Notes under the pieces: model-generated
Told to the model about the DNA's origin: nothing
Database searches by the model: none
The model's input: the letters and a program-made list of their open reading frames with translations, nothing else
NCBI GenBank assembly: GCA_017302015.1
Contig: JAFLEE010000019.1
Span: 2,551-66,550 of the forward strand
Reading direction: 5' to 3'
DNA length: 64,000 bases
Source: Spirochaetota bacterium
GTDB lineage: Bacteria > Spirochaetota > UBA12135 > COTS27 > JAFLEE01
Made by a program: the position numbers and the translations under genes
Part shown: positions 1 through 52,926 of the stretch, piece by piece
How the letters are laid out: every line of letters starts with the position of its first letter
How positions within the stretch are numbered: the stretch's first letter is position 1

Positions 1-346
1 GATTTTTGAAAATGCCCATAATTGATTTTTCTGGATTTCTTTCCAACCCTTTTGATTTCACGAAAATTGCCTTTGTATGGGAAAGTAATTTTGGTTTCAG
101 AAACTGCCGTTTTTGATTTTTCTGGATTTCTTCTCTTAACTCGTTGGGTCATTCGCTTTGGAGCACTACTTGATTATTTCCTTCTGATTTCAAAGAGGTT
201 ACTTTGGTTTGAAGATCAATTTCATTGCCCAGGTTCAGTTTTTGTTTCAGATTTCTTGATTTCTGATTCCTCATTTGATTCTGATCAAATTTCTACAATT
301 CCTATTCTCTTGATTCCTTTTCTGCATCTCTTTTGATTTCGCCTAA

Positions 347-464
347 CGTGGCGTTCAGCAGCGCCGATATTTAAATGGTCCTTTCGAATACGAAATACAT
401 TTCGAAAAACGGGTAAGTTCGAAGGCAAAGCCGGTGCGGCGTCTGCTGCAACGAATTGTTCGAG
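347..464 (-). other. attC of cassette 6 (about 118 bp). On the - strand: R'' CTCGAAC, then L'' aattcgttgcagcagacgccgc, then L' gcggcgctgctgaacgccac, then R' G|TTAGGC.
   Basis: L''/L' are inverse-complementary (cgttgcagcagacgccg versus cggcgctgctgaacg). R'' CTCGAAC is the exact reverse complement of G+TTCGAG, the cassette's own 5' end, as expected for a circularised cassette. The AACAATTCGTT...GACGCCGC start resembles class-1 59-be sites. Confidence 0.6.
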
Positions 465-599
465 TGCCTTTCTCATTCTGAGATTCCTGATCTCTTTTCT
501 TCATGTTTTCTCTATTTCTGAAATTCTTCAAATCTCTTCATCTGTCCTTACTTTTTGGATTTTGACCTAAGTTTTTTGTATTCCCCTGAGTCACTCGAA
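347..599 (-). repeat. Cassette 6, an ORF-less 253-bp gene cassette. It is copy 1 of duplicated element R1, near-identical to 3321..3574.
   Basis: Direct repeat of about 254 bp with only a few mismatches to 3321..3574. Bounded by G|TTCGAG (G 600 from the preceding attC) and ...ccacG|TTAGGC (G 347). No ORF of at least 60 aa that is confined to the element. Confidence 0.6.
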
Positions 600-650
600 C
601 GGTTAGGTTGAGCGGCGACCCTTGGGCGTCCGCTCGAACCTTTGTTAGGC
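600..650 (-). other. Short attC (about 51 bp) ending cassette 5. On the - strand: R'' GCCTAAC, L'' ggttcgagcggac, L' gtcgccgctcaacctaacc, R' G(600)|TTCGAG.
   Basis: Perfect RYYYAAC inverse core. Imperfect L''/L' inverted repeat (ggtt..gagcgg). Lies immediately 3' of cassette ORF 759..1403. The crossover G is followed by the start of the R1 cassette. Confidence 0.5.
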
Positions 651-758
651 CGTTAAAAATACCAATACCTCTCGACTGTTTTGTTGCCCAGACCTCTGGA
701 GAAGCAAATTTTGTTTTGGAATTTCATCATTGCATACTCATTTGTCAAACGTAGCGAA

Positions 759-1403
759 TCATCTTTCTGAGATTGAGTTTTTTACTTTTATCGAAAACGC
801 CAATACATCAACGCCATCTCGAAAATTAAATAACCGAATCGCCAGATTATTTCTAAAAATAGTCACGGAGTTCGTTTTATGTGCCCTTGTGCTGTCACTA
901 GGAAATCGAACTGGAGTGTTTCGCTCAATAAGTAAGATAGTGTTTGTCTCAATCATAATTAGCGAGTGCATCGAGGCATACAAGTCAACCGAGCCCGAGC
1001 CCTGTGTTGCCGATTCCAGAAAGACCATGTATCGAGTGGTCTCGCTCGACTTACTATAGTAGAGTTTGCCAACCGCAATTCTGTTTGTGGCCGAATCGAA
1101 ATACTCTAAGCCATCTTGATCGTTACATTTTAAAATTTTGAATGCACTCGGCTTATTGCTTCTTGAAAAAAATCGAGTTTCAACCCCAGAAATCCATGGG
1201 ACGTTCGATTCTGTTATTGGGCCATTGTTTCTTTGGCCACAAAATGAGGTTTCGTAGTCATTGTAGTGCAATCCCAACTTAAATACATTAAGTGAATTTG
1301 AAAAATCCACTATTTGTATCTTATGGTTGTATACTGATTCTGATATTGGAAAGCAATTAAGCGCCAAAATAATACATAGAAAAGAAATTTTACAACAAAT
1401 CAT
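759..1403 (-). CDS. Cassette-encoded hypothetical secreted protein (214 aa) with an N-terminal signal-peptide-like segment MICCKISFLCIILALNC.
   Basis: Complete ORF inside cassette 5 (1463..600). ATG preceded by a GAGGA Shine-Dalgarno 8 nt upstream. AT-rich codon usage typical of cassette DNA. No recognisable domain. Confidence 0.6.
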   Translation of the reverse strand: MICCKISFLCIILALNCFPISESVYNHKIQIVDFSNSLNVFKLGLHYNDYETSFCGQRNNGPITESNVPWISGVETRFFSRSNKPSAFKILKCNDQDGLEYFDSATNRIAVGKLYYSKSSETTRYMVFLESATQGSGSVDLYASMHSLIMIETNTILLIERNTPVRFPSDSTRAHKTNSVTIFRNNLAIRLFNFRDGVDVLAFSIKVKNSISER

Positions 1404-1463
1404 ATGATATCCTCAGATACTGTTGCTATATAAAAAGGTTTTATTATTCGCGCATTCATATAA

Positions 1464-1674
1464 CGCCAGGCACTCAAGAAATGCACCGTAACAAGCCTAT
1501 CATGAGAAGACGAGGAAAGTTCACCGGTGCATTTGGTTCGGAAGGGCGCCCGAAAAGAGGGCGATAAATCCCAGAAAGCCCTCTTTTCGGGCGCTCTGGA
1601 GAACCTGACGAACCCCCCCCCCCGGAGGCCGAAGGCCGGAGCGGGGGTGAGGAACTTGAGTGGCCTCGTTAGGT
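1464..1674 (-). other. attC of cassette 4 (211 bp, 'giant' attC). On the - strand: R'' ACCTAAC, then L'' and two long internal hairpins, then L' cttgagtgcctggc, then R' G(1464)|TTATAT.
   Basis: Outer imperfect inverted repeat (aacgccaggcactcaag / cttgagtggcctcgtt). R'' ACCTAAC equals the reverse complement of G+TTAGGT, the 5' end of its own cassette at 2227. About 85% identical to 2228..2435 and 3050..3252. Confidence 0.6.
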
Positions 1675-1777
1675 GAAAAGACTGGGCGGCGCAGGATGCG
1701 CCTCTTCTCTTGTATTTTGCGTTGAACAACGCCAAGAAACGAAGGCGCGAATTCCAAGTCGAGTAAAGCGAAAAAAA

Positions 1778-2137
1778 TCATTTCGATGCGACCCATTTTT
1801 CATACTGCACATAGTCCCTCTGGATTACCTCTTTTTCAAACAACTTCGAAACTGCACCACCAAAAGAAATTTTATCAGTATATTCTGGATATTCGGCCTT
1901 AGAAATTACATCGCGATAATCAATAATTGCAATTTCGATTTGGTTTCGAAGTCTTTCAATATTTTTAGATGAATTTCTGATAGCGTCGATCCAAACCCTG
2001 TACCTACCGTTTTTGCTGCCCTCACCAGAATACTTCATCAGTATAGAGAATACCATGTCGAAAGATTCCCGCGGAAACTCACGAGTAATAATTCTATTGA
2101 CGTCTTCAATTGAAAAAACCGGTACTTTCTGATCCAA
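1778..2137 (-). CDS. Cassette-encoded hypothetical protein (119 aa). TTG start as listed. GGAGA Shine-Dalgarno 8 nt upstream.
   Basis: Only ORF inside cassette 4 (2227..1464). An in-frame upstream stop limits the N-terminus. No recognisable domain. The start codon is uncertain (TTG or ATT). Confidence 0.5.
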   Translation of the reverse strand: MDQKVPVFSIEDVNRIITREFPRESFDMVFSILMKYSGEGSKNGRYRVWIDAIRNSSKNIERLRNQIEIAIIDYRDVISKAEYPEYTDKISFGGAVSKLFEKEVIQRDYVQYEKWVASK

Positions 2138-2227
2138 GAGAATCTCTCCAATATGGATATTTCATGATTTCATTTTGAACATCTTAGGCCGCCAGGAAGG
2201 CGGCCTCTTGCCCAGGCTTTTTACCTA

Positions 2228-2435
2228 ACGCCAGACACTCAAGAAATGCACCGTAATAAGCCTACCATGAGAAGACGAGGAAAGTTCACCGGTGCATTTG
2301 GTTCGGAAGAGCGCCCAAAAAGAGGGCGATAAATCCCCGAAAGCACTCTTTTTGGGCGCTCTGGAGAACCTGACGAATCCCCCCGGAGGCCGCAGGCCGG
2401 AGCGGGGGTGAGGAACTTGAGTGGCCTCGTTATGC
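2228..2435 (-). other. attC of cassette 3 (208 bp, 'giant' attC). On the - strand: R'' GCATAAC ... R' G(2228)|TTAGGT.
   Basis: Same architecture as 1464..1674. R'' GCATAAC is the reverse complement of G+TTATGC, the cassette's own 5' end at 3049. R' GTTAGGT fits the GTTRRRY consensus. Confidence 0.6.
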
Positions 2436-2493
2436 GCAATGGTCGGGCGCCGCAGGATGCGGCTCTTATTCTTAAATCGATTTAGATCCATAT

Positions 2494-2994
2494 TCAACTT
2501 TCCATTTCGATTCCCATGATTTTTAAAGAATTTGAAATTATACATGACAATACGTACTGTGTTGCATTCCCAGGAAGGGAAAAATCGAAACGCGTGTGTT
2601 CATTTTCAATATTCAAATAAATGCCAATTCTTTTAAGTATCATGACATTTGAAAATTCTACTTCGGTTGGATTCTTTTTCTGAAACAGCGATATTTTAAC
2701 CGGATCAGCAAGTTCTTCGCGGTGATGGTCGAAATACAACCTTGGAGATCTACCCGAATCAGCTATTTTAAATTCACATAAAATATTTTCAATACAACGA
2801 GTTCTTATTTTTTCTGATTCTTTCAAAATCATTTTAACAAGATCTGATTTCAATGAAATATCGGCGCCTGGTTCAATATTCAGGTCGACCGCAACAGGAT
2901 ACCCATTTACGATCAACGTAGAATCATAATAGTCCATGTGACCTTTTTGAGGAATCATTCCGAATGGATTGAAATCAAAGGTCTTCATTGACAT
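2494..2994 (-). CDS. Cassette-encoded hypothetical protein (about 166 aa, MSMKTFDFNPF...).
   Basis: ORF inside cassette 3 (3049..2228). The listed ORF starts at TTG 3000. ATG at 2994, or ATG at 2988 with GGAG 7 nt upstream, is a more likely start. No recognisable domain. Confidence 0.55.
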   Translation of the reverse strand: MSMKTFDFNPFGMIPQKGHMDYYDSTLIVNGYPVAVDLNIEPGADISLKSDLVKMILKESEKIRTRCIENILCEFKIADSGRSPRLYFDHHREELADPVKISLFQKKNPTEVEFSNVMILKRIGIYLNIENEHTRFDFSLPGNATQYVLSCIISNSLKIMGIEMES

Positions 2995-3049
2995 CTCCAA
3001 AATCTTTGGCCGCCACGATGGCGGCCTCTTGCCCGACTATTGCGCATAA

Positions 3050-3252
3050 CGCCAGGCACTCAAGAAATGCACCGTCTAGAGCCTACCATGGAACCTTGTG
3101 GAAAGTTCACCGGTGCATTTGGTTCGGAAGAGCGCCCCAAAAGAGGGCGATAATTCCCAGAAAGCCCTCTTTTGGGGCGCTCTGGAGAACCTGACGAACC
3201 CCCGAGCCGACCTTGGCGAGCGGGGTGAGGAACTTGAGTGGCCCCGTTATAT
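3050..3252 (-). other. attC of cassette 2 (203 bp, 'giant' attC). Cassette 2 (3320..3050) contains only 68 bp plus this attC and has no ORF. On the - strand: R'' ATATAAC ... R' G(3050)|TTATGC.
   Basis: Same three-hairpin architecture as the other two long attC sites. ORF 3060..3281 lies entirely within the repeat and is judged non-coding. Confidence 0.55.
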
Positions 3253-3320
3253 GAATGCGCTCTAGTCAATTTCATCCCCATTTTCTTCTCTTTTCAATCA
3301 TTCCTCAGTTCTTCGCCTAA

Positions 3321-3574
3321 CGTGGCGTTCAGCAGCGCCGATATTTAAATGGTCCTTTCGAATACGAAATACATTTCGAAAAACGGGTAATTTCGAAGGC
3401 AAAGCCCGTGCGGCGTCTGCTGCAACGAATTGTTCGAGTGCCTTTCTCATTCTGAGATTCCTGATCTTTTTTCTTCATGTTTTCTCTGTCTCTGAAATTC
3501 TTCAAATCTCTTCATCTATCCTTACTTTTTTTGATTCTGACCTGAGTTTTTTGTATTCCCTTGATTCACTCGAA
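3321..3574 (-). repeat. Cassette 1, the attI-proximal cassette (254 bp). It is copy 2 of duplicated element R1. Its own attC lies at 3321..3438 (R'' CTCGAAC at 3432..3438 on the + strand as gttcgag; R' G(3321)|TTAGGC).
   Basis: Near-identical to 347..599. Bounded by G(3575)|TTCGAG and ccacG(3321)|TTAGGC. Confidence 0.6.
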
Positions 3575-3669
3575 CAAGAATTAGGCGATCGCCAGTAATC
3601 CCCCACCCACGCCCGTTTCACCCGAATTGTCCCGGTTCTGTTTTTTCACAAAAGAGCATAGCATGCCCT
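3575..3669 (-). other. Candidate attI and intI promoter region. The crossover is predicted at G3575|T3574.
   Basis: 95-bp region between the intI start codon and the first G|TT cassette boundary. Contains the palindrome ggcgatcgcc. The assignment rests on position only. If R1 copy 2 is not a cassette, attI would instead end at G3321. Confidence 0.35.
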
Positions 3670-4902
3670 ATGCAACTAAAACGCCCAAACCCCGATGAAA
3701 TCAAGGCTTTTAAAGCGCACTTACTCGATTCCGGCCATCCCGAAAACCGGGTGGCCTGGTCCATCAAATGGCTGGAACGCTTTTTGGTGGAATGTGCGGA
3801 TCCAATCTTGACGGACCAGACTGTCAACCAATATTTACATTCCCTGGAGGGGCGATTTTTAGACTGGCAGGTGAGGCAGGCGTCCGAGGTGATTTCCCGC
3901 TATGGGGCTTGGTCGGGTGGAGTGAGTTTGGATGGAGAGCCGAAGGATTCAGCGCTGATCGCCGAGGCGAAGGCGCAGATCCGCCTCCTCCACTATGCCT
4001 ATCGCACCGAGCAGAGTTACCTCGATTGGCATCGGCGGTTTCTCAGGTTTCGGCGGGAGGAGGGGCTCCCCCTTGAGGCGCGTGCACTATCCTCTTTTTT
4101 GAGGAAGTTAAATGAAGGCGATGGAGTAGCCGCCTCGACCCTCAATCAGGCGCATCACGCGGTGGCCTTTCTCTTTAAGCACGTCCTTCGGAAGGAGGTG
4201 GATGCCCTGGAAGAGGTGCCGCTGGCGAAGCGGCCGAAAAGACTCCCTCAGGTCATTTCGCGGGAGGAAGTTTCTCGCCTGCTTTCGCAGATGAATGGGA
4301 CCACGGGGATCATGGGTGCGCTCCTCTACGGTTGCGGATTACGACTGATGGAATGCTGCCGATTACGGATAAAAGATATCGATCTAACGGGGAAGGGGGT
4401 CATGGTTCGGGGTGGGAAGGGCGGGAAGGACCGCAGGGTGCCCTTACCGCGGCGGCTCGAAGAAATCCTCGCCCAACAGATGCGCGTGGTGAAGCTCCGG
4501 CATGAAAGCGATGCCGAGCAGGGCATCCCCGTGTCCCTTCCCGAGGGCCTTGAGCGGAAGTACCCCGGCGCGGGCCTCGAGTGGCCATGGTTCTACGTGT
4601 TCCCTTCGGGGTCGACGTGCCAGCATCCCCGCCTTGCCTTGGTGGTGCGCCACCATCTCTTCGAGGACACGCTTCAACGGGCGGTGAAGGTGGCGGGAAT
4701 CCGGGCGAACCTATCGGTGCCGGCCCATTGCCATCTATTACGCCATTCCTATGCCACCCATCTTTTGGAGGCCGGGACGGATATCCGCACCCTCCAGGAA
4801 CTCCTCGGGCACCGCGATGTGTCCACCACCATGATCTATACCCACGTGATCCAGAGGCCGGGCCAGATGGTATCAAGTCCGTTGGATCTTCTTGGGCCTT
4901 AA
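3670..4902 (+). CDS. intI: Integron integrase IntI (tyrosine recombinase, 410 aa as annotated). A GTG start at 3922 would give a typical 326-aa IntI.
   Basis: Motifs read from the translation: IRLLHYAYRTEQSY (IntI N-terminus), the IntI-specific additional-domain signature LERKYPGAGLEWPWFYVFPS, VVRHH, HLLRHSYATHLL (HxxR) and GHRDVSTTMIYTHV (catalytic Tyr). Confidence 0.92.
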   Translation: MQLKRPNPDEIKAFKAHLLDSGHPENRVAWSIKWLERFLVECADPILTDQTVNQYLHSLEGRFLDWQVRQASEVISRYGAWSGGVSLDGEPKDSALIAEAKAQIRLLHYAYRTEQSYLDWHRRFLRFRREEGLPLEARALSSFLRKLNEGDGVAASTLNQAHHAVAFLFKHVLRKEVDALEEVPLAKRPKRLPQVISREEVSRLLSQMNGTTGIMGALLYGCGLRLMECCRLRIKDIDLTGKGVMVRGGKGGKDRRVPLPRRLEEILAQQMRVVKLRHESDAEQGIPVSLPEGLERKYPGAGLEWPWFYVFPSGSTCQHPRLALVVRHHLFEDTLQRAVKVAGIRANLSVPAHCHLLRHSYATHLLEAGTDIRTLQELLGHRDVSTTMIYTHVIQRPGQMVSSPLDLLGP

Positions 4903-16969: not shown

Positions 16970-17209
16970 GGATGCTCCTGTGAAAAAGGCCCTTTCGCGC
17001 CCTCATGGCGCGGGCGATTTTCGGGGGCTTCCCGGCCCCGCACAGAAGGGCGACTTCTGTGTATACAGGAAACAATCTAACCCGATAGCGGCCTTCCCGG
17101 TCAATCGAGGGGGAAAAGTGCCTTGGCCGTTATCGCGTTGAACTCGGAGGCGAATTGACGGGAATGGGGTGCGGGGCGCGGCCATCCCGCGATGTGGCTG
17201 GGAACGCTT

Positions 17210-43396: not shown

Positions 43397-44179
43397 TCAT
43401 GGGGGGGGATGGGAAGCCTTCGTAACGGATGGATCCTTTCCCAACCGGGCCGCGGCTTCCTTCAGGATCTTGGTGGTGAGGGCGGGCGTGTGTTTCCCCT
43501 TGATATCGGCCCGGGGGAGGCTCGCGCCCAGGGCGGAAACCATTTGGCCGTTCCCGTCGAGGATCGCCACCGCTTGGCGGAGGTAGAGGGCGTCATCGAA
43601 GGGGCTTTCGGCGGCGCCTTCCTTGGCCACGAGGGCGAGGAAGGCGTCGAGTTTCTCCCGTGTCTTCCATAGAGAGAGCCCGTGTTCCGCGAAGGGGCGC
43701 CGGTCCTCGAGGACCGAGCGCTCCGCGGCGTCGGCGTGGGCCAGCGCAATGAGTCCCGCGGCGCTGGCGTAGGGGTGGAGCGCGTCGCCGGAGAGGCGCT
43801 GGACGACCCCCGGGCGGTCGGGGCTCAGGCGGCGCGTTTGGCGGAATTCGGCGCCGACCCGCACGCCCCAGATCACCGTGGCGCCGGGGAGCTCGGCCTG
43901 GAGGGTGAGCATGGCGCCCTCGACGGCCGCGTTGCGCGGGGAGCGGAGTTGCTGCTCGCCGAGGACCGAGACGGCGGTGCCGAGGCGCAGGCGCCCATCG
44001 GGCCCCTTCTCGAGGAATTGGCGCAGGATGAGCGTGCGCACCAAGTGGTGCGTGGCGGGGGTCTTGAGGCCGAGGGCCGCGGCGAGTTCGTTGAGGCGCA
44101 AGCCGTCTTCCGCCTCGCCCACGGTGCGCAGGATATCGAGCCCCTTGAGGAGCGAGAGAACGGGATCGCTATGGGCCAT
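43397..44179 (-). CDS. IclR-family transcriptional regulator.
   Basis: N-terminal winged HTH (LLKGLDILRTVGEAEDGLRLNELAAALGLKTPATHHLVRTL) plus an effector domain. Confidence 0.8.
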   Translation of the reverse strand: MAHSDPVLSLLKGLDILRTVGEAEDGLRLNELAAALGLKTPATHHLVRTLILRQFLEKGPDGRLRLGTAVSVLGEQQLRSPRNAAVEGAMLTLQAELPGATVIWGVRVGAEFRQTRRLSPDRPGVVQRLSGDALHPYASAAGLIALAHADAAERSVLEDRRPFAEHGLSLWKTREKLDAFLALVAKEGAAESPFDDALYLRQAVAILDGNGQMVSALGASLPRADIKGKHTPALTTKILKEAAARLGKDPSVTKASHPPP

Positions 44180-46000: not shown

Positions 46001-48066
46001 TCGGTCCTCCCATTGGGGGTTTCGTTCAAAGTCCATTTTTCATCCTCAGTCTTCTCGACGCGCCAATGCCGACTCGAGCACTCTTCCTGGAGCACGATGG
46101 CATCGCCCGCGGGATCGATGCGAAGCGCCCACCGCTCCCTGGCGTACGGGGCCTCCAAGACCGTGGGCAGGGCGGCGTTCTTGAGGTGCCAATACGCCAC
46201 GGGGCCGTAGCCATCCACCGCGATGGCGTGCACCGCCCAGCGCTCCAATGCCGGCTCGTTCTCGATGAAGCGGGCGATGGCCGCGCTCCCGGCGGCGCCC
46301 TCGCCCCTCTGGCCGGGCATGGGGTGGTAGGCCAAATGCATCCAGCCGCTTGCGAGTTCGGCGAAACGGCCCCCGCCGCAATGGAAGAGTTTCATGCCGC
46401 TGGCCCCGCGGCGGCAGATGAGGCGGTCTTCCCCGGGATCCTTGAGTTCTAGGGCGCGGTCGTGGTTGTCGAGCACCCAATTCCACACGGTTCGCACCGG
46501 GGTGGTGGCGACGACATGGTCGACGATGAAAAGCGCGTGGGAACCGCAGAGGATCCAAAAACGCTCGCACGTTCGGATCGGATCGCCATAGGAGCGGCCG
46601 AACTCGCTGGCGGTCACCCGTAATTGGCCCAGACTCGCCGAAAGCAGTCGACGGGCCCCCCGGTCGATGGCGGGGCCGGGGACGCCGTCTTGGAGTTTTC
46701 GCACCGGGGTTCCGCCCTGCTGCAGGACGAGTTCGCCGTGCGGCCCGGGGACGCGGAAGGTGAGGGTATTGTGGGTCTGGGACTGGACCTCGGTGGCGTG
46801 CACCAGGCCCCGGTAGCAGGAATGCCCCGGATCCGCCAGCAGGCGCTCCTCCCGGTGGGTCAGGATGAAACTGCCCAGGTCGCCATGGAGGTGGCCCAGG
46901 CCGTTTAGGGCCGGGCCGCCGCCGCGGACCGCGAGGACGGTCTCCCCGCCCCAATGGTCCCGGGCGATGGTATCGCCGTTGTCGAAGGACTGCATCGCCC
47001 CAAGACCGATTTGCTCCGGGGTTCGGGCCTGGGCCGCTCCCGCCAGGTGCACCAGGGCCAGAAACCCGAAACGGGGAAGGAAACCGAATGAGGACTGGTC
47101 GTGGGGTTCGGGGTCGGGAACGGGCGGGGTGAACGTGTCGTGGATCCAGCGCGCCAGGCCCGAGAGGTCCGCATTTTTCCCCTTCAACCTCGAAGAAATC
47201 TGGAGAAGGACATCGGCGGAAGGCGAATAGATCGCGCCGGAATCGTTGAAGTTCGCCGACCAGGCGCGGGGCGCGGGGCCGAAGCCCTCGGCGGGCTTCC
47301 GATGGAGGAGGCTCGCGGCCTGCCAAATCAGGCCGCGGGCGTAGCGCTCGATGGGGAGCGAAGCGAGAAGCGCGGGGCGCGCGCGCACCAGGGCTTCGTA
47401 GTGGAGGGTGAGGGCGTACATGGCGTAATGGCCGTATTGCAGCGATTCCCCGTAGGACCCGTCCTCCTGGAAACATTCCACATGGATCTTGAAGAGCCGT
47501 TCGGCTTCATCCAGCGCCGCCTCATCCTTGAGGATCGCCGCGGGCACGGCGAGGCCCGCGCCAAGGACGCAGCGCCAATTGGCCAGGGTCGTTCCGGCGG
47601 GCCCCTCGAGGAAGCGTCGGCACATGGGGATCGCCCGGTCGCGCAGCACCGCGATCAGTTCATCCCGTTCGCTTTCGCGGAAGACCCCGGGGGCGAGATC
47701 GAGGGCGAGGGAGATCGCCCAGGAGAGGTGGGCGGTCTCGAGGTGGCCGACCGGGGGTTTCGCGGTATGGTTGCGGAATCCCGGGCCGACCCAATCGTCT
47801 TCGCTGCGCCGTGACAGATCGAGGGCCACGCTTCGGAGCCACGCCCCCACGTTCGCGTCGCCCGTGAGGGCGACGTGCATGGCGGCGTCGGAGACGTACT
47901 CATGGGCGGCGTGCCACCAGGCCATGGTGGCGCCGGGACCGAGGAGCCCGGGTTGGGCCGAGCGCCGCAGGCAGCGCATGGCGAGGGCCCATTTATAGTC
48001 GGCATGCACCGGCTCGCGGGAACCGAGAAAGGCGGCTTTTTGGGGATCGCTCAGGAAGTGGGGCAT
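45997..48066 (-). CDS. Heparinase II/III-like polysaccharide lyase (689 aa).
   Basis: C-terminal GLGHLHGDLGSFIL...DPGHSCY block typical of the heparinase II/III (alginate/heparin lyase) family. N-terminal alpha/alpha toroid-like region. Confidence 0.65.
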   Translation of the reverse strand: MPHFLSDPQKAAFLGSREPVHADYKWALAMRCLRRSAQPGLLGPGATMAWWHAAHEYVSDAAMHVALTGDANVGAWLRSVALDLSRRSEDDWVGPGFRNHTAKPPVGHLETAHLSWAISLALDLAPGVFRESERDELIAVLRDRAIPMCRRFLEGPAGTTLANWRCVLGAGLAVPAAILKDEAALDEAERLFKIHVECFQEDGSYGESLQYGHYAMYALTLHYEALVRARPALLASLPIERYARGLIWQAASLLHRKPAEGFGPAPRAWSANFNDSGAIYSPSADVLLQISSRLKGKNADLSGLARWIHDTFTPPVPDPEPHDQSSFGFLPRFGFLALVHLAGAAQARTPEQIGLGAMQSFDNGDTIARDHWGGETVLAVRGGGPALNGLGHLHGDLGSFILTHREERLLADPGHSCYRGLVHATEVQSQTHNTLTFRVPGPHGELVLQQGGTPVRKLQDGVPGPAIDRGARRLLSASLGQLRVTASEFGRSYGDPIRTCERFWILCGSHALFIVDHVVATTPVRTVWNWVLDNHDRALELKDPGEDRLICRRGASGMKLFHCGGGRFAELASGWMHLAYHPMPGQRGEGAAGSAAIARFIENEPALERWAVHAIAVDGYGPVAYWHLKNAALPTVLEAPYARERWALRIDPAGDAIVLQEECSSRHWRVEKTEDEKWTLNETPNGRTE

Positions 48067-48139
48067 GGGTCTTCTCCGCGGCGTTTAGCGAGGATGGCGA
48101 TTTCGAGCGGGCATGGGGTTCTTCCCGGAGCGCCCGCCG

Positions 48140-48799
48140 TCAGAAATACCCGCCCTTCGCCACGACCTCCGTCGGCTTCAGGCCGCTTTCCACCATCTCG
48201 CGGATCCCCACCTCGCGGATGAGGATTCCCTCGGCTTTCAGGAGCACGTCGACGATGAGGTCCTTGGGCACGCAGATCACTCCGTCGATGTCGCCGAAGA
48301 GGAAATCGCCGGGATGTACGGTGATCTCGCCGATGCGCACCGGTTTCTGCCAATAGTACATGCGGAAGCGGCCCAGCATGCCCACATTGGTGCGGTATTG
48401 GTGGAAGACGGGGAATTTCTGCTCGAGGATGGCGTCGGTATCGCGGATGCCGTTGACGATCGCCCCCCGGCACCCCGCGCGCATGGCGGCCATGGTCATC
48501 ACCTCGCCCCAGTGCGCAGTCACGGTGTCGCCGGTGCAATCCCAGGCGATCACCGAATCCGTCGGGAGTTCTTCGAGCATGCGGGCCCGGGCTTCCATCT
48601 CGCCGTCGGTGGTGATGTCGGGGGCGCCCTTGATGGTGAAGGCGACCCCGGCGATCTTCATGCCGCGCTCCAGCGGGGCATAGCAGGCGGGAAGCGCGCA
48701 GTGCCTCTTATAATCGAACCGCAGCACGTCGTTGACGGCGCCCGAATAGAGTTTCAGGTAGCGCGCGCGGATCTCGGGGAGGGGGAGGTTGTGGTTCAT
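48140..48799 (-). CDS. RraA-family protein (4-hydroxy-4-methyl-2-oxoglutarate aldolase or methyltransferase-like, possibly a KdgF-like role).
   Basis: 219 aa. Overall RraA/MenG-family similarity recalled from memory (GDIVVAD-like segment GDFLFGDIDGVICVP). Confidence 0.55.
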   Translation of the reverse strand: MNHNLPLPEIRARYLKLYSGAVNDVLRFDYKRHCALPACYAPLERGMKIAGVAFTIKGAPDITTDGEMEARARMLEELPTDSVIAWDCTGDTVTAHWGEVMTMAAMRAGCRGAIVNGIRDTDAILEQKFPVFHQYRTNVGMLGRFRMYYWQKPVRIGEITVHPGDFLFGDIDGVICVPKDLIVDVLLKAEGILIREVGIREMVESGLKPTEVVAKGGYF

Positions 48800-48822
48800 T
48801 GGATTTCCTTTTTCGATGTGGA

Positions 48823-49884
48823 TTACGAAGCGCTGTCTCGCCCCGTGGGCGCCCCCGGGACCGCTTTGATCCCGAGAAGGTGCGCTTGGGAGAAGGCGAG
48901 CATGGCGGGGCCGAAGGCGTGTTCGTCGTTGAGGCGCCAGGCATTATCTTTGTAGGCCTCCACCGACCCGTCTTTTGGGCTGAGGCACCCCGTGCAGGTC
49001 TGGTCCACGGCGCCCTCGGGGGAGAGGTACTTGAGGTAGCCGCCGAGGCCCTTCTCGAAGGCCGCGCGGGTTTCCGCGCCGAGGAGCTTCGTTTCGAGGC
49101 CCCGACCCATGGCGTAGAGGATGAGCCCGCTGCCGGAGGTTTCGACGTAGGAGGCGCGGTCGTCCATCTGTTGGTGCCAGAGCCCGTCGCCGTCTTGGGT
49201 GCGCCGGCAAGCTTCGACATGGTCGATGAATAGGGCGCGTAGGGTGGGCCCCATCGGGTGGGTCGTGGGAACCACGCAAGCGAGTTCGCACAAGGCGATG
49301 GCGGCCCACCCGTTGCCACGGCTCCACAAGTCATGGGAACGCACGCCGGGGCCCGAGAAACCCACCGCCTGACGGAAGAGCCCGGTGTTCCCGTCGAGGA
49401 GGATGCCCCGCAGGAGGAGGATCTGGCGGATGGCCTCGTCGACCCACGCGTCGTTCTTGAGGGCGACCCCGACCATGGCGAGGAAGGGGCACACGGCGAA
49501 GGCCGCATCGATCCAGAGCGTCTCGGGCCGATTGGGGAAAGTGAAGAGGCCGAGGCGGGTTCGGGGATGCTCCGCCACCAGGTCGCGGCATGCCTGGGCA
49601 AGGACCCCGTCTCGGCCCTCGAGTTTCCCGTTCAAGAGCAGCCAGGCGCTCGCGTTACCGCCCACGCGGTAGAGGCGGAAGGCCCCGTGGACCTGGGGCA
49701 CCCGACCGTCGAGGAACGCGGCGAGTTCGGTGCGGGCCGGTTCGAGGAAGCGGGGATCGCCGTGGGTGCCCATGCGCGCGAGGGCGTGGAGGGCGAGGAT
49801 CTCGCTGTAATTGTGGATGGCGACTTCTTTTCGGAAGCGCTTCCAGATGGTTTCAGCGAGGGGAAGGGTGGGGGTCGAATTCAT
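48823..49884 (-). CDS. Unsaturated glucuronyl or rhamnogalacturonyl hydrolase (GH88/GH105 family).
   Basis: WSRGNGW and other (alpha/alpha)6 GH88/GH105 signatures. 353 aa. Confidence 0.65.
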   Translation of the reverse strand: MNSTPTLPLAETIWKRFRKEVAIHNYSEILALHALARMGTHGDPRFLEPARTELAAFLDGRVPQVHGAFRLYRVGGNASAWLLLNGKLEGRDGVLAQACRDLVAEHPRTRLGLFTFPNRPETLWIDAAFAVCPFLAMVGVALKNDAWVDEAIRQILLLRGILLDGNTGLFRQAVGFSGPGVRSHDLWSRGNGWAAIALCELACVVPTTHPMGPTLRALFIDHVEACRRTQDGDGLWHQQMDDRASYVETSGSGLILYAMGRGLETKLLGAETRAAFEKGLGGYLKYLSPEGAVDQTCTGCLSPKDGSVEAYKDNAWRLNDEHAFGPAMLAFSQAHLLGIKAVPGAPTGRDSAS

Positions 49885-49984
49885 GGGTGCCTCTAATGTA
49901 TCAATGATGAATTAAAATACAATCATAGATAAAGTATAGATCCGTACACCTTGATTGTCAAACAAATCCGTTCTCTTTTTTTGC

Positions 49985-50167
49985 ACATGATGTCCGGATG
50001 ACATTAAATCGGACGGCGCCCCAGGAGGCGGCTAAAAGCCGTCCGACACGATGAAAGGAGGTCATTAATCGGTCGCCGCGCCAGGAAGGCGCACTCAGGC
50101 GACCGACACGATGTCCGGAGGACATAAAACCCGATGGCGCCGCAAGGGCCGGTGGTTCGCCGCCCGG
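49985..50167. repeat. Three tandem units of about 60 bp (plus a degenerate fourth). Each unit has a small ATGnnn..nnnCAT hairpin, then TAAAnC, then a GC-rich hairpin.
   Basis: Units start at 49985, 50047 and 50107. Small hairpins are atgtccggatgacat, atgaaaggaggtcat and atgtccggaggacat. Large stems are cggacggc/gccgtccg and cggtcgcc/ggcgaccg. Confidence 0.5.
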
Positions 50168-50393
50168 CAGGATGCTCCGCCGTGGACCCTTCGCGCTCCG
50201 GTGTATAGCCGTGGAGGTCCGCACATCTCTCCGTCTGCCGGCATGGGGTCGTGACTTCAACATTTCGATTGGGGAATCCAAAGGCTCTTGGGCTACGGAT
50301 CACCGCCACCCACGCAACGTGTTTCATGGGATGGAGATTGTCGCGCAGCAGGGAGGTGCTTCCTTAGAGGGTTCTTGGAAAAATGAACGGCAT

Positions 50394-51995
50394 TTACGGC
50401 CTCGCACCCGCGCTGGGTGCGGCGCCTGTAAAGGTCCCCATCTCGCAGCCTGGCAGCGGCTTGCCATCGAGGTAGCGGCTGAGCACGAGCCCCGCCCCAA
50501 TGGCCGCGGAGGCCGGATCCGGGGCGAAGTACGGGCCCAATTTGACCCCGTCTACGTACCGGCAATCGCGCTCATTTCCCTCGCCCTCTTTCCAGGGCGG
50601 CCGTCCCCCGACGACGACATTGTTCCGAGAGGTGAAATTGACCGGTATCGCCCCCTTGGATTGGTCCGTGAAATAGCCCCGGTCGGTGACGATCAGGTTG
50701 TTCAGGAAGTGCCAGCGCGGGATGCCGATGCCGGGGCTCCCGCCCGGGGCGAGCGTATGGAGGACTAGGGCCTCGCGGTGGCCGACGATGGTGTTCTGGT
50801 AAATGTAACCGGAGGCGGTTGAGGCATCCATGCTGAACCAGAAATTGAAGCCGCGGTCGTCTTCCAAGAGGTTGTGGTGGATGTACACGGGGCCGATCCT
50901 GGGCAGTTTGAAGCGGAAACCGCCATGGGTGCGGCGAAACACGTTGTCGTGCACGTGCAGGTTGATCGCTCCGCCGCCGATCTCGATGCCCGAATCGCGC
51001 ACGTCTTCGACGGTGTTCCATGCGATTTCCGTGTCTCGCCCCTCCCCATCGCCGATGAGCGGCTTGGCCAGCGTTTCCACCACATGGACGGTGACGTTGA
51101 TCCCGTCGAAGGTCTCGCGGATGAAATTGGAGAGGATGCGGTTGCCGGCGCCGGCGGCCTGGAGGGTGATCCCCATCCGGTCGAAATAGCCGCAGAGTTT
51201 GTGGATCTGCCAGACCTCATACTCCCGTTTGATCTCCTCCTTGTTCGTGGCCGCCGGAACCCAGGATTCATAGGAACCCCTCTGGATGGCGTTGGAGACG
51301 ATGAGGTTGCTGTGGGCACCCCCGTCGAGGATGATGCCGTGGTGGGAAAAGGAGGCGAGGGTGCAATCGCGCAGCACGCATCCCCGGGCCCCCGAATCGA
51401 ACCGCACGGCCTCGAAGGCTCCGGCGAAGGCCAATCCCCGAACGGTCGCCCCGCGCGCCCCCTTGAAATGGAGGGCCGGGGCCCCCGTGGGCATCCAAGA
51501 CCAAGTTCGACCGCTTGGATCGGCGCCCCCCAAAGTGACATAGGCGGTTTTCTCCGCCTCGCGCCAGAGCCAGAGCGCCCGGATTTGGGTGAAGCCCGAA
51601 CGGGGCGGGCCCTTGGCCAGGAGGGTCTTCCAATGCCAATCCCCCTCGGTTTGCACCCGATCTTCACGCAGGGCCGCGACGATTTTGCCGTCCACCATCA
51701 ATTCGTAGGGCTTTTGCTCCAGGGAAGACTTCCATACCCCGGCGCCGATTTCGGGGGCGGGCCCCCATTTGGCCGGGAGTGGCTCGCTCGGGTCGATCCT
51801 GACCTCCCCGTCCCCCACCAGGTGGATCTCTTTTTCCAGTACGATCGGTGCCCGGTATCGCCCCGCGCGCAGGTGGATCACCGCGCCGTCGACGGCCCCG
51901 GTGATCGCCGAGGAGAGCGATGCATCGGAGTCGACTAGGGCTTCTGCGCTGCCCCAAAGCGCGACGACGACGCAGAAGATGAGGCATCGCCCCAT
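50394..51995 (-). CDS. Secreted right-handed parallel beta-helix protein (pectate-lyase fold; polysaccharide lyase or glycosidase).
   Basis: Signal peptide MGRCLIFCVVVALWGSAEA. Multiple NxxxxN/HxN-type beta-helix repeats (NLIVSNAI, HVHDNVF, IHHNLL, NNLIVTD). The upstream 50 codons of the listed ORF are R/G-rich and probably untranslated. Confidence 0.6.
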   Translation of the reverse strand: MGRCLIFCVVVALWGSAEALVDSDASLSSAITGAVDGAVIHLRAGRYRAPIVLEKEIHLVGDGEVRIDPSEPLPAKWGPAPEIGAGVWKSSLEQKPYELMVDGKIVAALREDRVQTEGDWHWKTLLAKGPPRSGFTQIRALWLWREAEKTAYVTLGGADPSGRTWSWMPTGAPALHFKGARGATVRGLAFAGAFEAVRFDSGARGCVLRDCTLASFSHHGIILDGGAHSNLIVSNAIQRGSYESWVPAATNKEEIKREYEVWQIHKLCGYFDRMGITLQAAGAGNRILSNFIRETFDGINVTVHVVETLAKPLIGDGEGRDTEIAWNTVEDVRDSGIEIGGGAINLHVHDNVFRRTHGGFRFKLPRIGPVYIHHNLLEDDRGFNFWFSMDASTASGYIYQNTIVGHREALVLHTLAPGGSPGIGIPRWHFLNNLIVTDRGYFTDQSKGAIPVNFTSRNNVVVGGRPPWKEGEGNERDCRYVDGVKLGPYFAPDPASAAIGAGLVLSRYLDGKPLPGCEMGTFTGAAPSAGARP

Positions 51996-52003
51996 CGGGA
52001 CTT

Positions 52004-52711
52004 TCACTGCGTAAGCCACGCCATGCTGTCCACATCCACCTGCCGGATGAGCATATGTTCGGGCGCCGAAAAGACCCAGAGGATGACCGAGGCGACATCC
52101 TCCACTTTGAGCATCTTCTCCCGGGCGACCTTGCGGTCTCCCCAATAGGCGCTATCGGTGGCGGAGGGGTTCACCTCGCTCACGCGGATGCCGAGTTTGA
52201 GGGCCTGGTCGGCGAGGCCCAAGCCGACCCCGCGCTGGCCGAATTTGCTGGCGCAATAGAGGGGCGCCGTGGGGTTGGTCTTCTGCCCGGCGACGGAGAC
52301 GATATTGACGATATGCCCCGCCTTGGCGGGCTTCATGAGCCGAAGGGCTTCGCGGGTGCAGAGGAAGGTGCCGCGCACGTTGGTATTGAACATCGCCTCG
52401 AAGTCGGCGAGTTTGGCTTCGCTCAGGTCGGGCGTGGGGATGCCCAAGCCGGCGTTATTGAGGAGCCCGTCGAGGCGGCCGAATCGCGCGGCGCAATCGG
52501 CGAAGGCCTCGGCGACGGAAGCTTCATCGGAAACGTCGCAGACGCGGGTGGCGAGGTTCGGGGTGGGGCGCTCCCGCTTGAGGGCCTCCAATTTGGAGGG
52601 GTCGCGCCCGATGCCGAAGACTTTCGCCCCCGCCGCAAGGAGCGAAAGGGTCGTGGCTTTCCCGATGCCGCTTCCGGCTCCGGTGATGAAAAAAACTTTT
52701 TGATCGATCAT
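52004..52711 (-). CDS. SDR-family oxidoreductase.
   Basis: FITGAGSGIGKA, NNAG and YCASK motifs. ATG at 52711. Confidence 0.75.
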   Translation of the reverse strand: MIDQKVFFITGAGSGIGKATTLSLLAAGAKVFGIGRDPSKLEALKRERPTPNLATRVCDVSDEASVAEAFADCAARFGRLDGLLNNAGLGIPTPDLSEAKLADFEAMFNTNVRGTFLCTREALRLMKPAKAGHIVNIVSVAGQKTNPTAPLYCASKFGQRGVGLGLADQALKLGIRVSEVNPSATDSAYWGDRKVAREKMLKVEDVASVILWVFSAPEHMLIRQVDVDSMAWLTQ

Positions 52712-52926
52712 GGGTGCCTCTTTGTTTATCAAGGATAAATAATAAATATCACTATGATACATTATAGGTCGTAGATTTGGAGAAGTCAATGTGCGTCAAA
52801 ATCCAGACGGCGGACCCTACCGCATACGAGGATTGGGTCGTAAGATTCCATCCTAAACAATGAGAGCGGATTTTGCCAATCCAGCGTCGCGCGGGCCCTA
52901 CGGACCCCCGGAGAAACGGTGAACCC

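Follow-up and report, generated by a model that had tools for sequence, protein, structure and literature searches.

The DNA analysed here, a stretch of 64 kb referred to as the window, belongs to the 66% GC MAG of a Spirochaetota bacterium. In it, two minus-strand genes, each of a sugar-degradation operon, enclose a spacer of 509 nt. Upstream of the spacer lies the gene of a right-handed beta-helix protein of 533 aa (50394..51995), the last gene of an SDR/beta-helix unit, and downstream of it the gene of a GH88 unsaturated glucuronyl/rhamnogalacturonyl hydrolase (48823..49884, MBN8216477.1), the first in the order GH88, RraA-like, heparinase-like, ADH, SDR and IclR. The coordinates and the strand given for both genes in an earlier note on this DNA are correct. 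The IclR-family regulator of the GH88 operon is encoded at 43397-44179. Within the spacer, a tandem array of hairpin-forming units (49985-50169) is found approximately 228 nt beyond the beta-helix stop codon. The proximal part of the spacer, which follows this stop codon (50170..50393, minus strand), is free of repeat units, is not unusually structured and shows no sign of coding.

A sigma-70 promoter of the GH88 operon (TTGACA-17-TATACT, 11/12 matches) is predicted on the minus strand at 49961..49933; it separates the array from the start codon of GH88, its -35 hexamer beginning 24 nt past the array. The A7 tract at 49976..49982 (minus strand; T7 on the plus strand), located between the first unit and the -35 hexamer, may be an UP-like element. 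The predicted promoter of the SDR/beta-helix unit (52789..52761, minus strand) has the same architecture and is paralogous to that of GH88, and a 13-nt RBS context (AGAGGCACCCATG) is identical at the start codons served by both promoters and is found nowhere else in the window. Since the GH88 promoter is paralogous to that of the upstream unit, two separate transcription units are predicted, and the array sits at the 3' end of the predicted SDR/beta-helix unit. A 5'-UTR or riboregulatory function for GH88, considered earlier with this promoter overlooked, is disfavoured: with a promoter between array and gene, the array is placed outside the primary GH88 5' UTR and would reach the GH88 mRNA by read-through only. 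The two promoters and their leaders of approximately 48 nt form paired modules (49885-49961 and 52709-52789, minus strand; TTGACA/TTGACT-17-TATACT/TATAAT). Both leaders carry palindromes of the ATCA..TGAT type (TATCATAGTGATA and ATCATTGAT), which are operator candidates, perhaps of the IclR-family protein encoded at 43397-44179.

TRF reported a single array (49985-50129) with a period of 60, 2.4 copies, 72% matches and a score of 155, the only long-period repeat that this program gave for the 64-kb window. A covariance model of the unit recognized three head-to-tail copies (49985-50048, 50051-50105 and 50106-50169, with E-values of 5e-19, 1e-10 and 2e-15, respectively), and the same three units were returned by nhmmer. 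The array is a real repeat with the 60-bp period claimed before, and it comprises three units rather than four. The degenerate fourth unit proposed in the earlier note was rejected: local alignments of each unit to 50168-50393, on both strands, were no better than those of shuffles (p > 0.15), and neither the covariance model nor nhmmer found a copy. Pattern search, covariance model and nhmmer detected no further full or partial unit elsewhere in the 64-kb window, and 27 kb of related loci contained none either. A degenerate unit suspected upstream of the SDR promoter was unsupported by nhmmer and the covariance model. A weak covariance-model match to the whole bipartite unit (13.8 bits, E of 0.2) was obtained at 16981-17043 (minus strand), in the intergenic region between two minus-strand genes, where a small GC hairpin is followed by a GCGCC-AUGAG-GGCGC hairpin with a U5 run; this is probably an ordinary terminator region and no relative of the array.

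The units are designated U1 (49985..50045), U2 (50046..50105) and U3 (50106..50169) and share 69% (U1/U2), 71% (U1/U3) and 60% (U2/U3) of their nucleotides. Read on the plus strand, each consists of ACAYG, a small ATG..CAT hairpin, TAAA and a two-tier GC-rich hairpin. The latter has an outer stem of 9 bp, an inner stem of 5 bp, an apical loop of 5 nt and a bulge of 5 nt on the 3' side. The linkers ACAYGATG and TAAA are conserved among the units, and the small palindrome with its surroundings (ACAYGATG...GGA...CAT) is conserved in sequence as well as in structure.

The small hairpins are present as the earlier note had quoted them, namely atgtccggatgacat at 49990-50004, atgaaaggaggtcat at 50051-50065 and atgtccggaggacat at 50111-50125. 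U1 (86.7 bits) is the only unit with both hairpins intact. Its small hairpin reads ATGTC-CGGAT-GACAT, and its GC-rich hairpin (50009-50046) combines the 9-bp outer stem with a 5-bp inner stem containing one C.C mismatch, the apical loop being AGGAG and the bulge TAAAA on the plus strand. In U2, the GC-rich hairpin (50069-50106; 9 + 5 bp, loop AGGAA) is perfect, while the small hairpin is weak, with 4 bp only around the loop AAGGAGG. The outer stems of these two units are perfect (50009-17/50038-46 and 50069-77/50098-106). U3 (71.7 bits) has an intact small hairpin of 6 bp with the loop GGA and a degraded GC-rich hairpin, in which 11 of 14 pairs are kept in register, including two that are G.U when read on the plus strand. 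The earlier description of three good units is thus an overstatement, as the GC-rich hairpin of U3 and the small hairpin of U2 are impaired.

Stable hairpins are frequent in the 66% GC DNA of the window; compared with shuffled sequences, U1 and U2 fold with z-scores of -4.55 and -4.26 on the plus strand and of -3.6 and -4.3 on the minus strand, while U3 and the proposed fourth unit fold no better than shuffles (z of approximately 0). The rest of the spacer (50166-50396) is without unusual structure (z of +0.83), which leaves the array as the only significant structure within the 509 nt. The earlier claim that the GC-rich arms differ between units and yet stay self-complementary holds for U1 and U2. 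Between them, four pairs are flipped: in the outer stem A-T to T-A and G-C to C-G, in the inner stem C-G to G-C, and in the small hairpin T-A to A-T. None of the differences disrupts a pair of the GC-rich hairpin, of which 14/14 and 13/14 pairs are retained at 69% identity, and the small hairpin of U2 has one pair fewer. These compensatory flips, without any disruptive change in the GC-rich stems, indicate that selection or templating acted on the formation of the hairpins.

When five different unit sequences are taken together, 93.7% of the cells are paired on the plus strand, compared to 81.6 +/- 2.8% in column shuffles (reached by 0/500) and to at most 46% when the partners are slid. The covariation score for these sequences is 0.37, compared to 0.16 in shuffles (0/500). 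In the mirror test on the minus strand, 91.6% of the cells are paired, so that base pairing does not identify the strand. Nearly all stem pairs are of the Watson-Crick type; read on the plus strand, the stems include three G.U pairs, and read on the minus strand, one.

A coding repeat was rejected, since codon-position GC is flat, at approximately 0.6 for each of GC1, GC2 and GC3 in every ORF of the array (0.65/0.50/0.82 in genes), and no Pfam match was obtained for the ORFs across it; their GC3 is 0.57-0.68 compared to 0.77-0.88 in genes. The plus-strand ORF 50172-50768 was likewise rejected as a real gene, and no tRNA or tmRNA was found by ARAGORN. The comparison with Rfam proposed earlier gave noise only and no family match, for the region with E up to 10 and for the whole window at the gathering threshold. 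A pattern that matches all three units (ACAYGATGNNNGGAKGNCATWAA) was searched for in 596 Gb of genomes, JGI metagenomes and viral contigs. It gave six single hits in genome contigs, 13 in metagenomes and one in a viral contig, all of which are due to chance because none has an adjoining hairpin. These scans are uninformative on copies in this species, as they returned neither the source MAG nor the contig of the close relative described below. No match was found in the plasmid collection by blastn.

Short head-to-tail repeats in a non-coding stretch are also the form of CRISPR arrays and of the antitoxin arrays of type III (ToxI-like) toxin-antitoxin systems. A CRISPR array was rejected, in agreement with the earlier note, as the repeats are only 60-71% identical and the would-be spacers are mutually homologous and self-complementary. 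A ToxI-like antitoxin was rejected as well, there being no toxin gene downstream and a promoter separating the array from GH88. An integron attC site or cluster, defined by R''/R' core sites (RYYYAAC ... GTTRRRY) bracketing an imperfect palindrome, was rejected because U1 and U2 have no AAC...GTT core and the genuine integron is 45 kb away.

This chromosomal integron is located at 1-4902, with its integrase on the plus strand at 3670-4902 (TIGR02249, 357.9 bits, cut-off 265). To the left of the integrase, a low-GC (41-46%) array of small minus-strand ORFs is found, with unusually long boundary repeats; the cassette ORFs gave no NCBIfam matches. The boundary repeats of approximately 212 nt are present in three copies (1406-1617, 2171-2382 and 2992-3203), each of which continues into an 89-nt segment to give approximately 300 nt, with inverted ends ATAACGCCAGGCACTCAAG...CTTGAGTGGCCTCGTTAT. 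A second repeat, of 219 nt, has copies at 338-556 and 3312-3530; at approximately 600-655 there is a short attC-like site. Small GC-only hairpins flank each cassette ORF (1688-1702, 2186-2204, 2449-2463 and 3008-3026, plus strand). Together with the array hairpin at 50078-50092 they have loops AGGAT, AGGAA or ACGAT, followed by TCTT. The window contains four hairpins with a perfect 5-bp GC stem and an AGGA[AT] pentaloop, all of them located on the plus strand and running antisense to the genes around them.

Two independent Logan assemblies contain the array in identical form. The JGI contig L024, whose GH88 is 98% identical at the amino acid level, carries the array with the same copy number and three substitutions, so that the array is not an assembly artefact. 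The first substitution changes the apical loop of U1 from AGGAG to AGGAT (plus strand). The second is located at the inner-stem mismatch of U1, where L024 has G-C, as U3 does, and the C.C of the window is for this reason probably the derived state. By the third, the closing U-A of U2 becomes U.G on the plus or C.A on the minus strand.

The more distant relatives place the spacer at a synteny break. The next-closest GH88 proteins are 56-58% identical, and their genes start 10-35 nt behind a different gene, which is heparinase-like in one contig (L009) and not the beta-helix gene in two others (L028 and L029). By this comparison of gene orders, the spacer is specific to the lineage considered here, in which the SDR/beta-helix pair and the 509-nt spacer would have been joined to the GH88 operon. 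For a beta-helix relative of 82% identity, the contig ends 117 nt past the stop codon, before the expected start of the array; these 117 nt are barely alignable, and the proximal spacer is poorly conserved in this relative. A relative of 52% identity has a different gene context. Divergence from L024 rises steadily over 3.5 kb (47597-51146), from 0.7% in the beta-helix gene over 1.6% in the spacer and 2.2% in GH88 to 3.0% in the RraA-like and 4.9% in the heparinase-like gene, a gradient that points to a recombination boundary close to the spacer.

Behind the 9-bp stems, T-rich tails are confined to the minus strand (TTTAATGT, 5/8; TTAATGAC, 3/8; TTTTATGT, 6/8); the plus-strand tails read CACGATGA, CACGATGT and CAGGATGC. 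A scan of the minus strand for canonical intrinsic terminators (a GC-rich hairpin with a 3-8 nt loop, followed by at least five T in eight) did not call the array units, because loop plus bulge are too long and the tail of U2 is weak. Canonical terminators are not enriched in the window, and the intergenic regions between its co-directional genes usually contain stable GC-rich hairpins, mostly without U tracts. Both observations make a non-canonical 3'-end hairpin plausible in this organism.

Position, orientation and the T-rich tails confined to the minus strand are best accounted for by a locally duplicated 3'-end hairpin element, which would act as non-canonical terminator, RNA stabiliser or promoter insulator; we give this reading a probability of roughly 40%. 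What we infer is transcription of the region, the choice of the minus strand as the one that matters and an actual termination or stabilisation. On the minus strand, RNA polymerase would continue past the stop of the beta-helix gene into the units, each of which would fold into a stable two-tier GC-rich hairpin of approximately -26 to -28 kcal/mol with a U-rich tail directly behind it (UUUAAUGU, UUAAUGAC or UUUUAUGU). Stacked in this way, the hairpins would terminate transcription non-canonically or make the polymerase pause, and would block 3'-exonucleases; the upstream mRNA would thereby be ended and stabilised, and the strong GH88 promoter, which begins 24 nt further on, would be protected from read-through. 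The three copies would have arisen by tandem duplication, with the promoter-proximal U1 fully intact and U2 and U3 decaying. In this form, the stacked terminator array considered in the earlier note is retained, with the qualifications that its units fail the canonical scan and that only two of the GC-rich hairpins are intact. A terminator-type element leaves unexplained why the small ATG..CAT hairpin, both linkers (ACAYGATG and TAAA) and the recurrent loop GGA (UCC on the other strand) are conserved.

A possible, though doubtful, explanation is that the array is a cluster of a dispersed palindromic repeat private to the species, similar to REP/BIME, BOX or SPRITE elements. The units would then belong to a mobile or recombination-spread family whose hairpins are kept for the spreading mechanism rather than for a local function, and U1 and U2 would be members of subfamilies that landed side by side. 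Short intergenic palindromes with differing yet self-complementary stems are typical of REP subfamilies (PMC3733652), boxB modules are arranged in tandem and SPRITE elements are terminator-like at the 3' ends of genes (PMC3049150), and the array lies at a lineage-specific synteny break. Moreover, the U1 apical hairpin of L024 shares the 19-mer GGCGCCGCAGGATGCGGCT with an integron-region hairpin at 2446-2464, a length of identity reached by 0/200 null sequences, and the four perfect GC hairpins with AGGA[AT] loops in the window compare to approximately 0.1 expected. The site at 2446-2464 is a hairpin within the ~300-nt repeats that separate the integron cassettes. The shared 19-mer and the AGGA[AT] hairpins may represent a small genome-wide hairpin motif, or a coincidence.

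Against a dispersed repeat stands the absence of a second unit from the 64-kb window and from the 27 kb of related loci, while the negative database scans, which the source MAG and the L024 contig had escaped, say little on this point. No transposase or RAYT gene is nearby, the sole recombinase being the integron integrase 45 kb away. The units also depart from the GTAG/CGTC REP definition in tag, loop, stem start and orientation. REPs of these super-families carry an unpaired GTAG or CGTC (or TGTC/CCTC) tag on one side of the palindrome; CGTC REPs have a stem of 8-9 bp with A/T pairs at positions 1-2, a loop of 4-5 nt and a CCA tail, and in the GTAG/CGTC families a head-to-tail arrangement is negligible, most copies being head-to-head or tail-to-tail dimers with many dispersed copies (PMC3733652). 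In the array, the 9-bp stem fits, but 20 nt with a nested hairpin lie between its arms, the first stem pair alone is A/T, and the tail is TTT/TTA. There is no GTAG at the flanks (CATCGTG/TCGG... on the minus and TAAA/TCGG... on the plus strand), and TGTC is obtained only if a paired T and C are counted as unpaired. The units stand head-to-tail at a single locus in the 64-kb window. The earlier statement that this is not an obvious REP family is therefore correct for these definitions, dispersed copies having been judged within the 64-kb window.

That the array is a neutral relic, i.e. an old tandem duplication of a functional or accidental hairpin region with decaying copies and no present role, we consider unlikely. 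It would account for U1 alone being fully intact, with U2 and U3 having each lost one hairpin. The array differs from L024 at 3 of 186 positions and the rest of the spacer at 5 of 323, which is equal; third positions of the flanking genes diverge by 1.2% (left) and 5-8% (right), with the array between these values, and the divergence from this single relative is so shallow that the strain comparison cannot show present constraint. Of the three substitutions within the species, two weaken stem pairs; this is what an absence of present constraint would predict, although the sample is tiny. The 82% relative likewise shows a fast-evolving spacer. On the other hand, the retention of 14/14 and 13/14 pairs of the large hairpin at 69% identity, by way of three flips, is very unlikely under neutral decay, and the copy number is stable between strains, being equal in L024, whose neighbouring genes show 5-8% synonymous divergence.

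It is highly improbable that the 15-bp palindromes (ATGTCC-GGA-GGACAT) are DNA operators for a dimeric regulator, for which the IclR-family protein of the operon would be the candidate. Such operators would be spaced 60-61 bp apart, with centres at approximately -71, -132 and -192 from the predicted GH88 promoter. Conservation of sequence, and not of structure alone, in and around the small palindrome is consistent with this, as are the IclR-type regulator encoded in the GH88 operon and the position of the array directly upstream of the predicted GH88 promoter. Yet the palindrome is absent from the SDR promoter of the same design and from the rest of the window, that of U2 is merely 4+4 symmetric, and the compensatory evolution of the GC-rich hairpins is left unexplained. 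The 20-nt spacer in these hairpins makes cruciform extrusion in duplex DNA unlikely. The palindrome type shared by the 5' UTRs of both promoters (ATCA..TGAT) is the better operator candidate.

A very slim chance is given to the reading in which the array would encode a plus-strand decoy RNA, antisense to the flanking genes; in its widest form, the GC stems with AGGA[AUG] loops of the array and the near-identical AGGAU/AGGAA hairpins at the integron cassette boundaries would be the motif by which a protein that binds RNA or ssDNA recognises its sites. With five or six loop GGA motifs approximately 30 nt apart, the decoy would titrate a protein that binds GGA, for instance CsrA, as the CsrB/RsmZ (Csr/Rsm-like) sponges do. 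GGA is found in five of the six predicted plus-strand loops (CGGAU, AAGGAGG, GGA, AGGAG and AGGAA; the apical loop of U3 is AAGGG), as in a sponge with several GGA motifs in hairpin loops. It is constant while adjoining stem bases change, and L024 has AGGAU where U1 has AGGAG. An exact match to the CsrB repeat CAGGA(U/A/C)G is found in U2 and in U1 of L024, and the sites follow one another at 28-32 nt, inside the 10-63 nt range for dual-site binding (PMC7652899). The G.U pairs favour the plus strand 3:1. However, neither a promoter nor a terminator was found on the plus strand, and no Csr/Rsm family match was obtained in Rfam with E up to 10. The GGA count has no strand bias beyond the loops, whose mRNA-sense reading is UCC. 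[quoted passage not shown] For spirochaetes, no Csr/Rsm-type sRNA antagonist was found in the literature consulted.

If the 3'-end hairpin element is real, a high-GC spirochaete would end an operon and insulate the next promoter by duplicated, bulged hairpins instead of U-tract terminators. This would be useful for the prediction of operons and terminators in MAGs, though unsurprising. The compensatory changes among the tandem copies are a small, clean case of structure conservation within one locus. The finding would matter more if the complete genome held a new dispersed family linked to the integron-associated AGGAW hairpins, or if plus-strand transcription and CsrA binding held.

Among known systems, intrinsic and tandem terminators resemble the array in the GC-rich stem with a U-rich tail in the sense orientation and in the position past a stop codon and before the next promoter. 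They differ from it in that the array stem is broken by a 5-nt bulge and the tails are mixed A/U rather than a U run. With CsrB, CsrC and RsmX-Z the array has in common the loop GGA motifs at approximately 30-nt spacing, some in the CAGGA(U/A/C)G context (PMC7652899); in contrast to these sRNAs, it matches on the antisense strand only, without promoter, terminator or Rfam match, and with more stable stems.

REP/BIME elements are, like the array, short extragenic palindromes, often at 3' ends, whose stems vary yet stay self-complementary, and termination and mRNA stabilisation are among their proposed roles (PMC3733652). Unlike them, the array has no GTAG/CGTC tag, a two-tier hairpin, an additional small hairpin in each unit, a head-to-tail order and one known locus. 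BOX and SPRITE are composite intergenic repeats with an internal module that is tandem and self-folding, SPRITE being terminator-like and enriched at 3' ends; the pneumococcal elements have many dispersed copies, flanking boxA and boxC and a strain-variable number of boxB (PMC3049150), whereas the array is found at one locus in the window, its flanks (50170-50393 and 49885-49984) being unique and mutually unrelated, without flanking modules, with units 60-71% identical and with a stable copy number. The array is thus an orphan variant of a well-known class, the small structured intergenic repeats, rather than a new kind of system.
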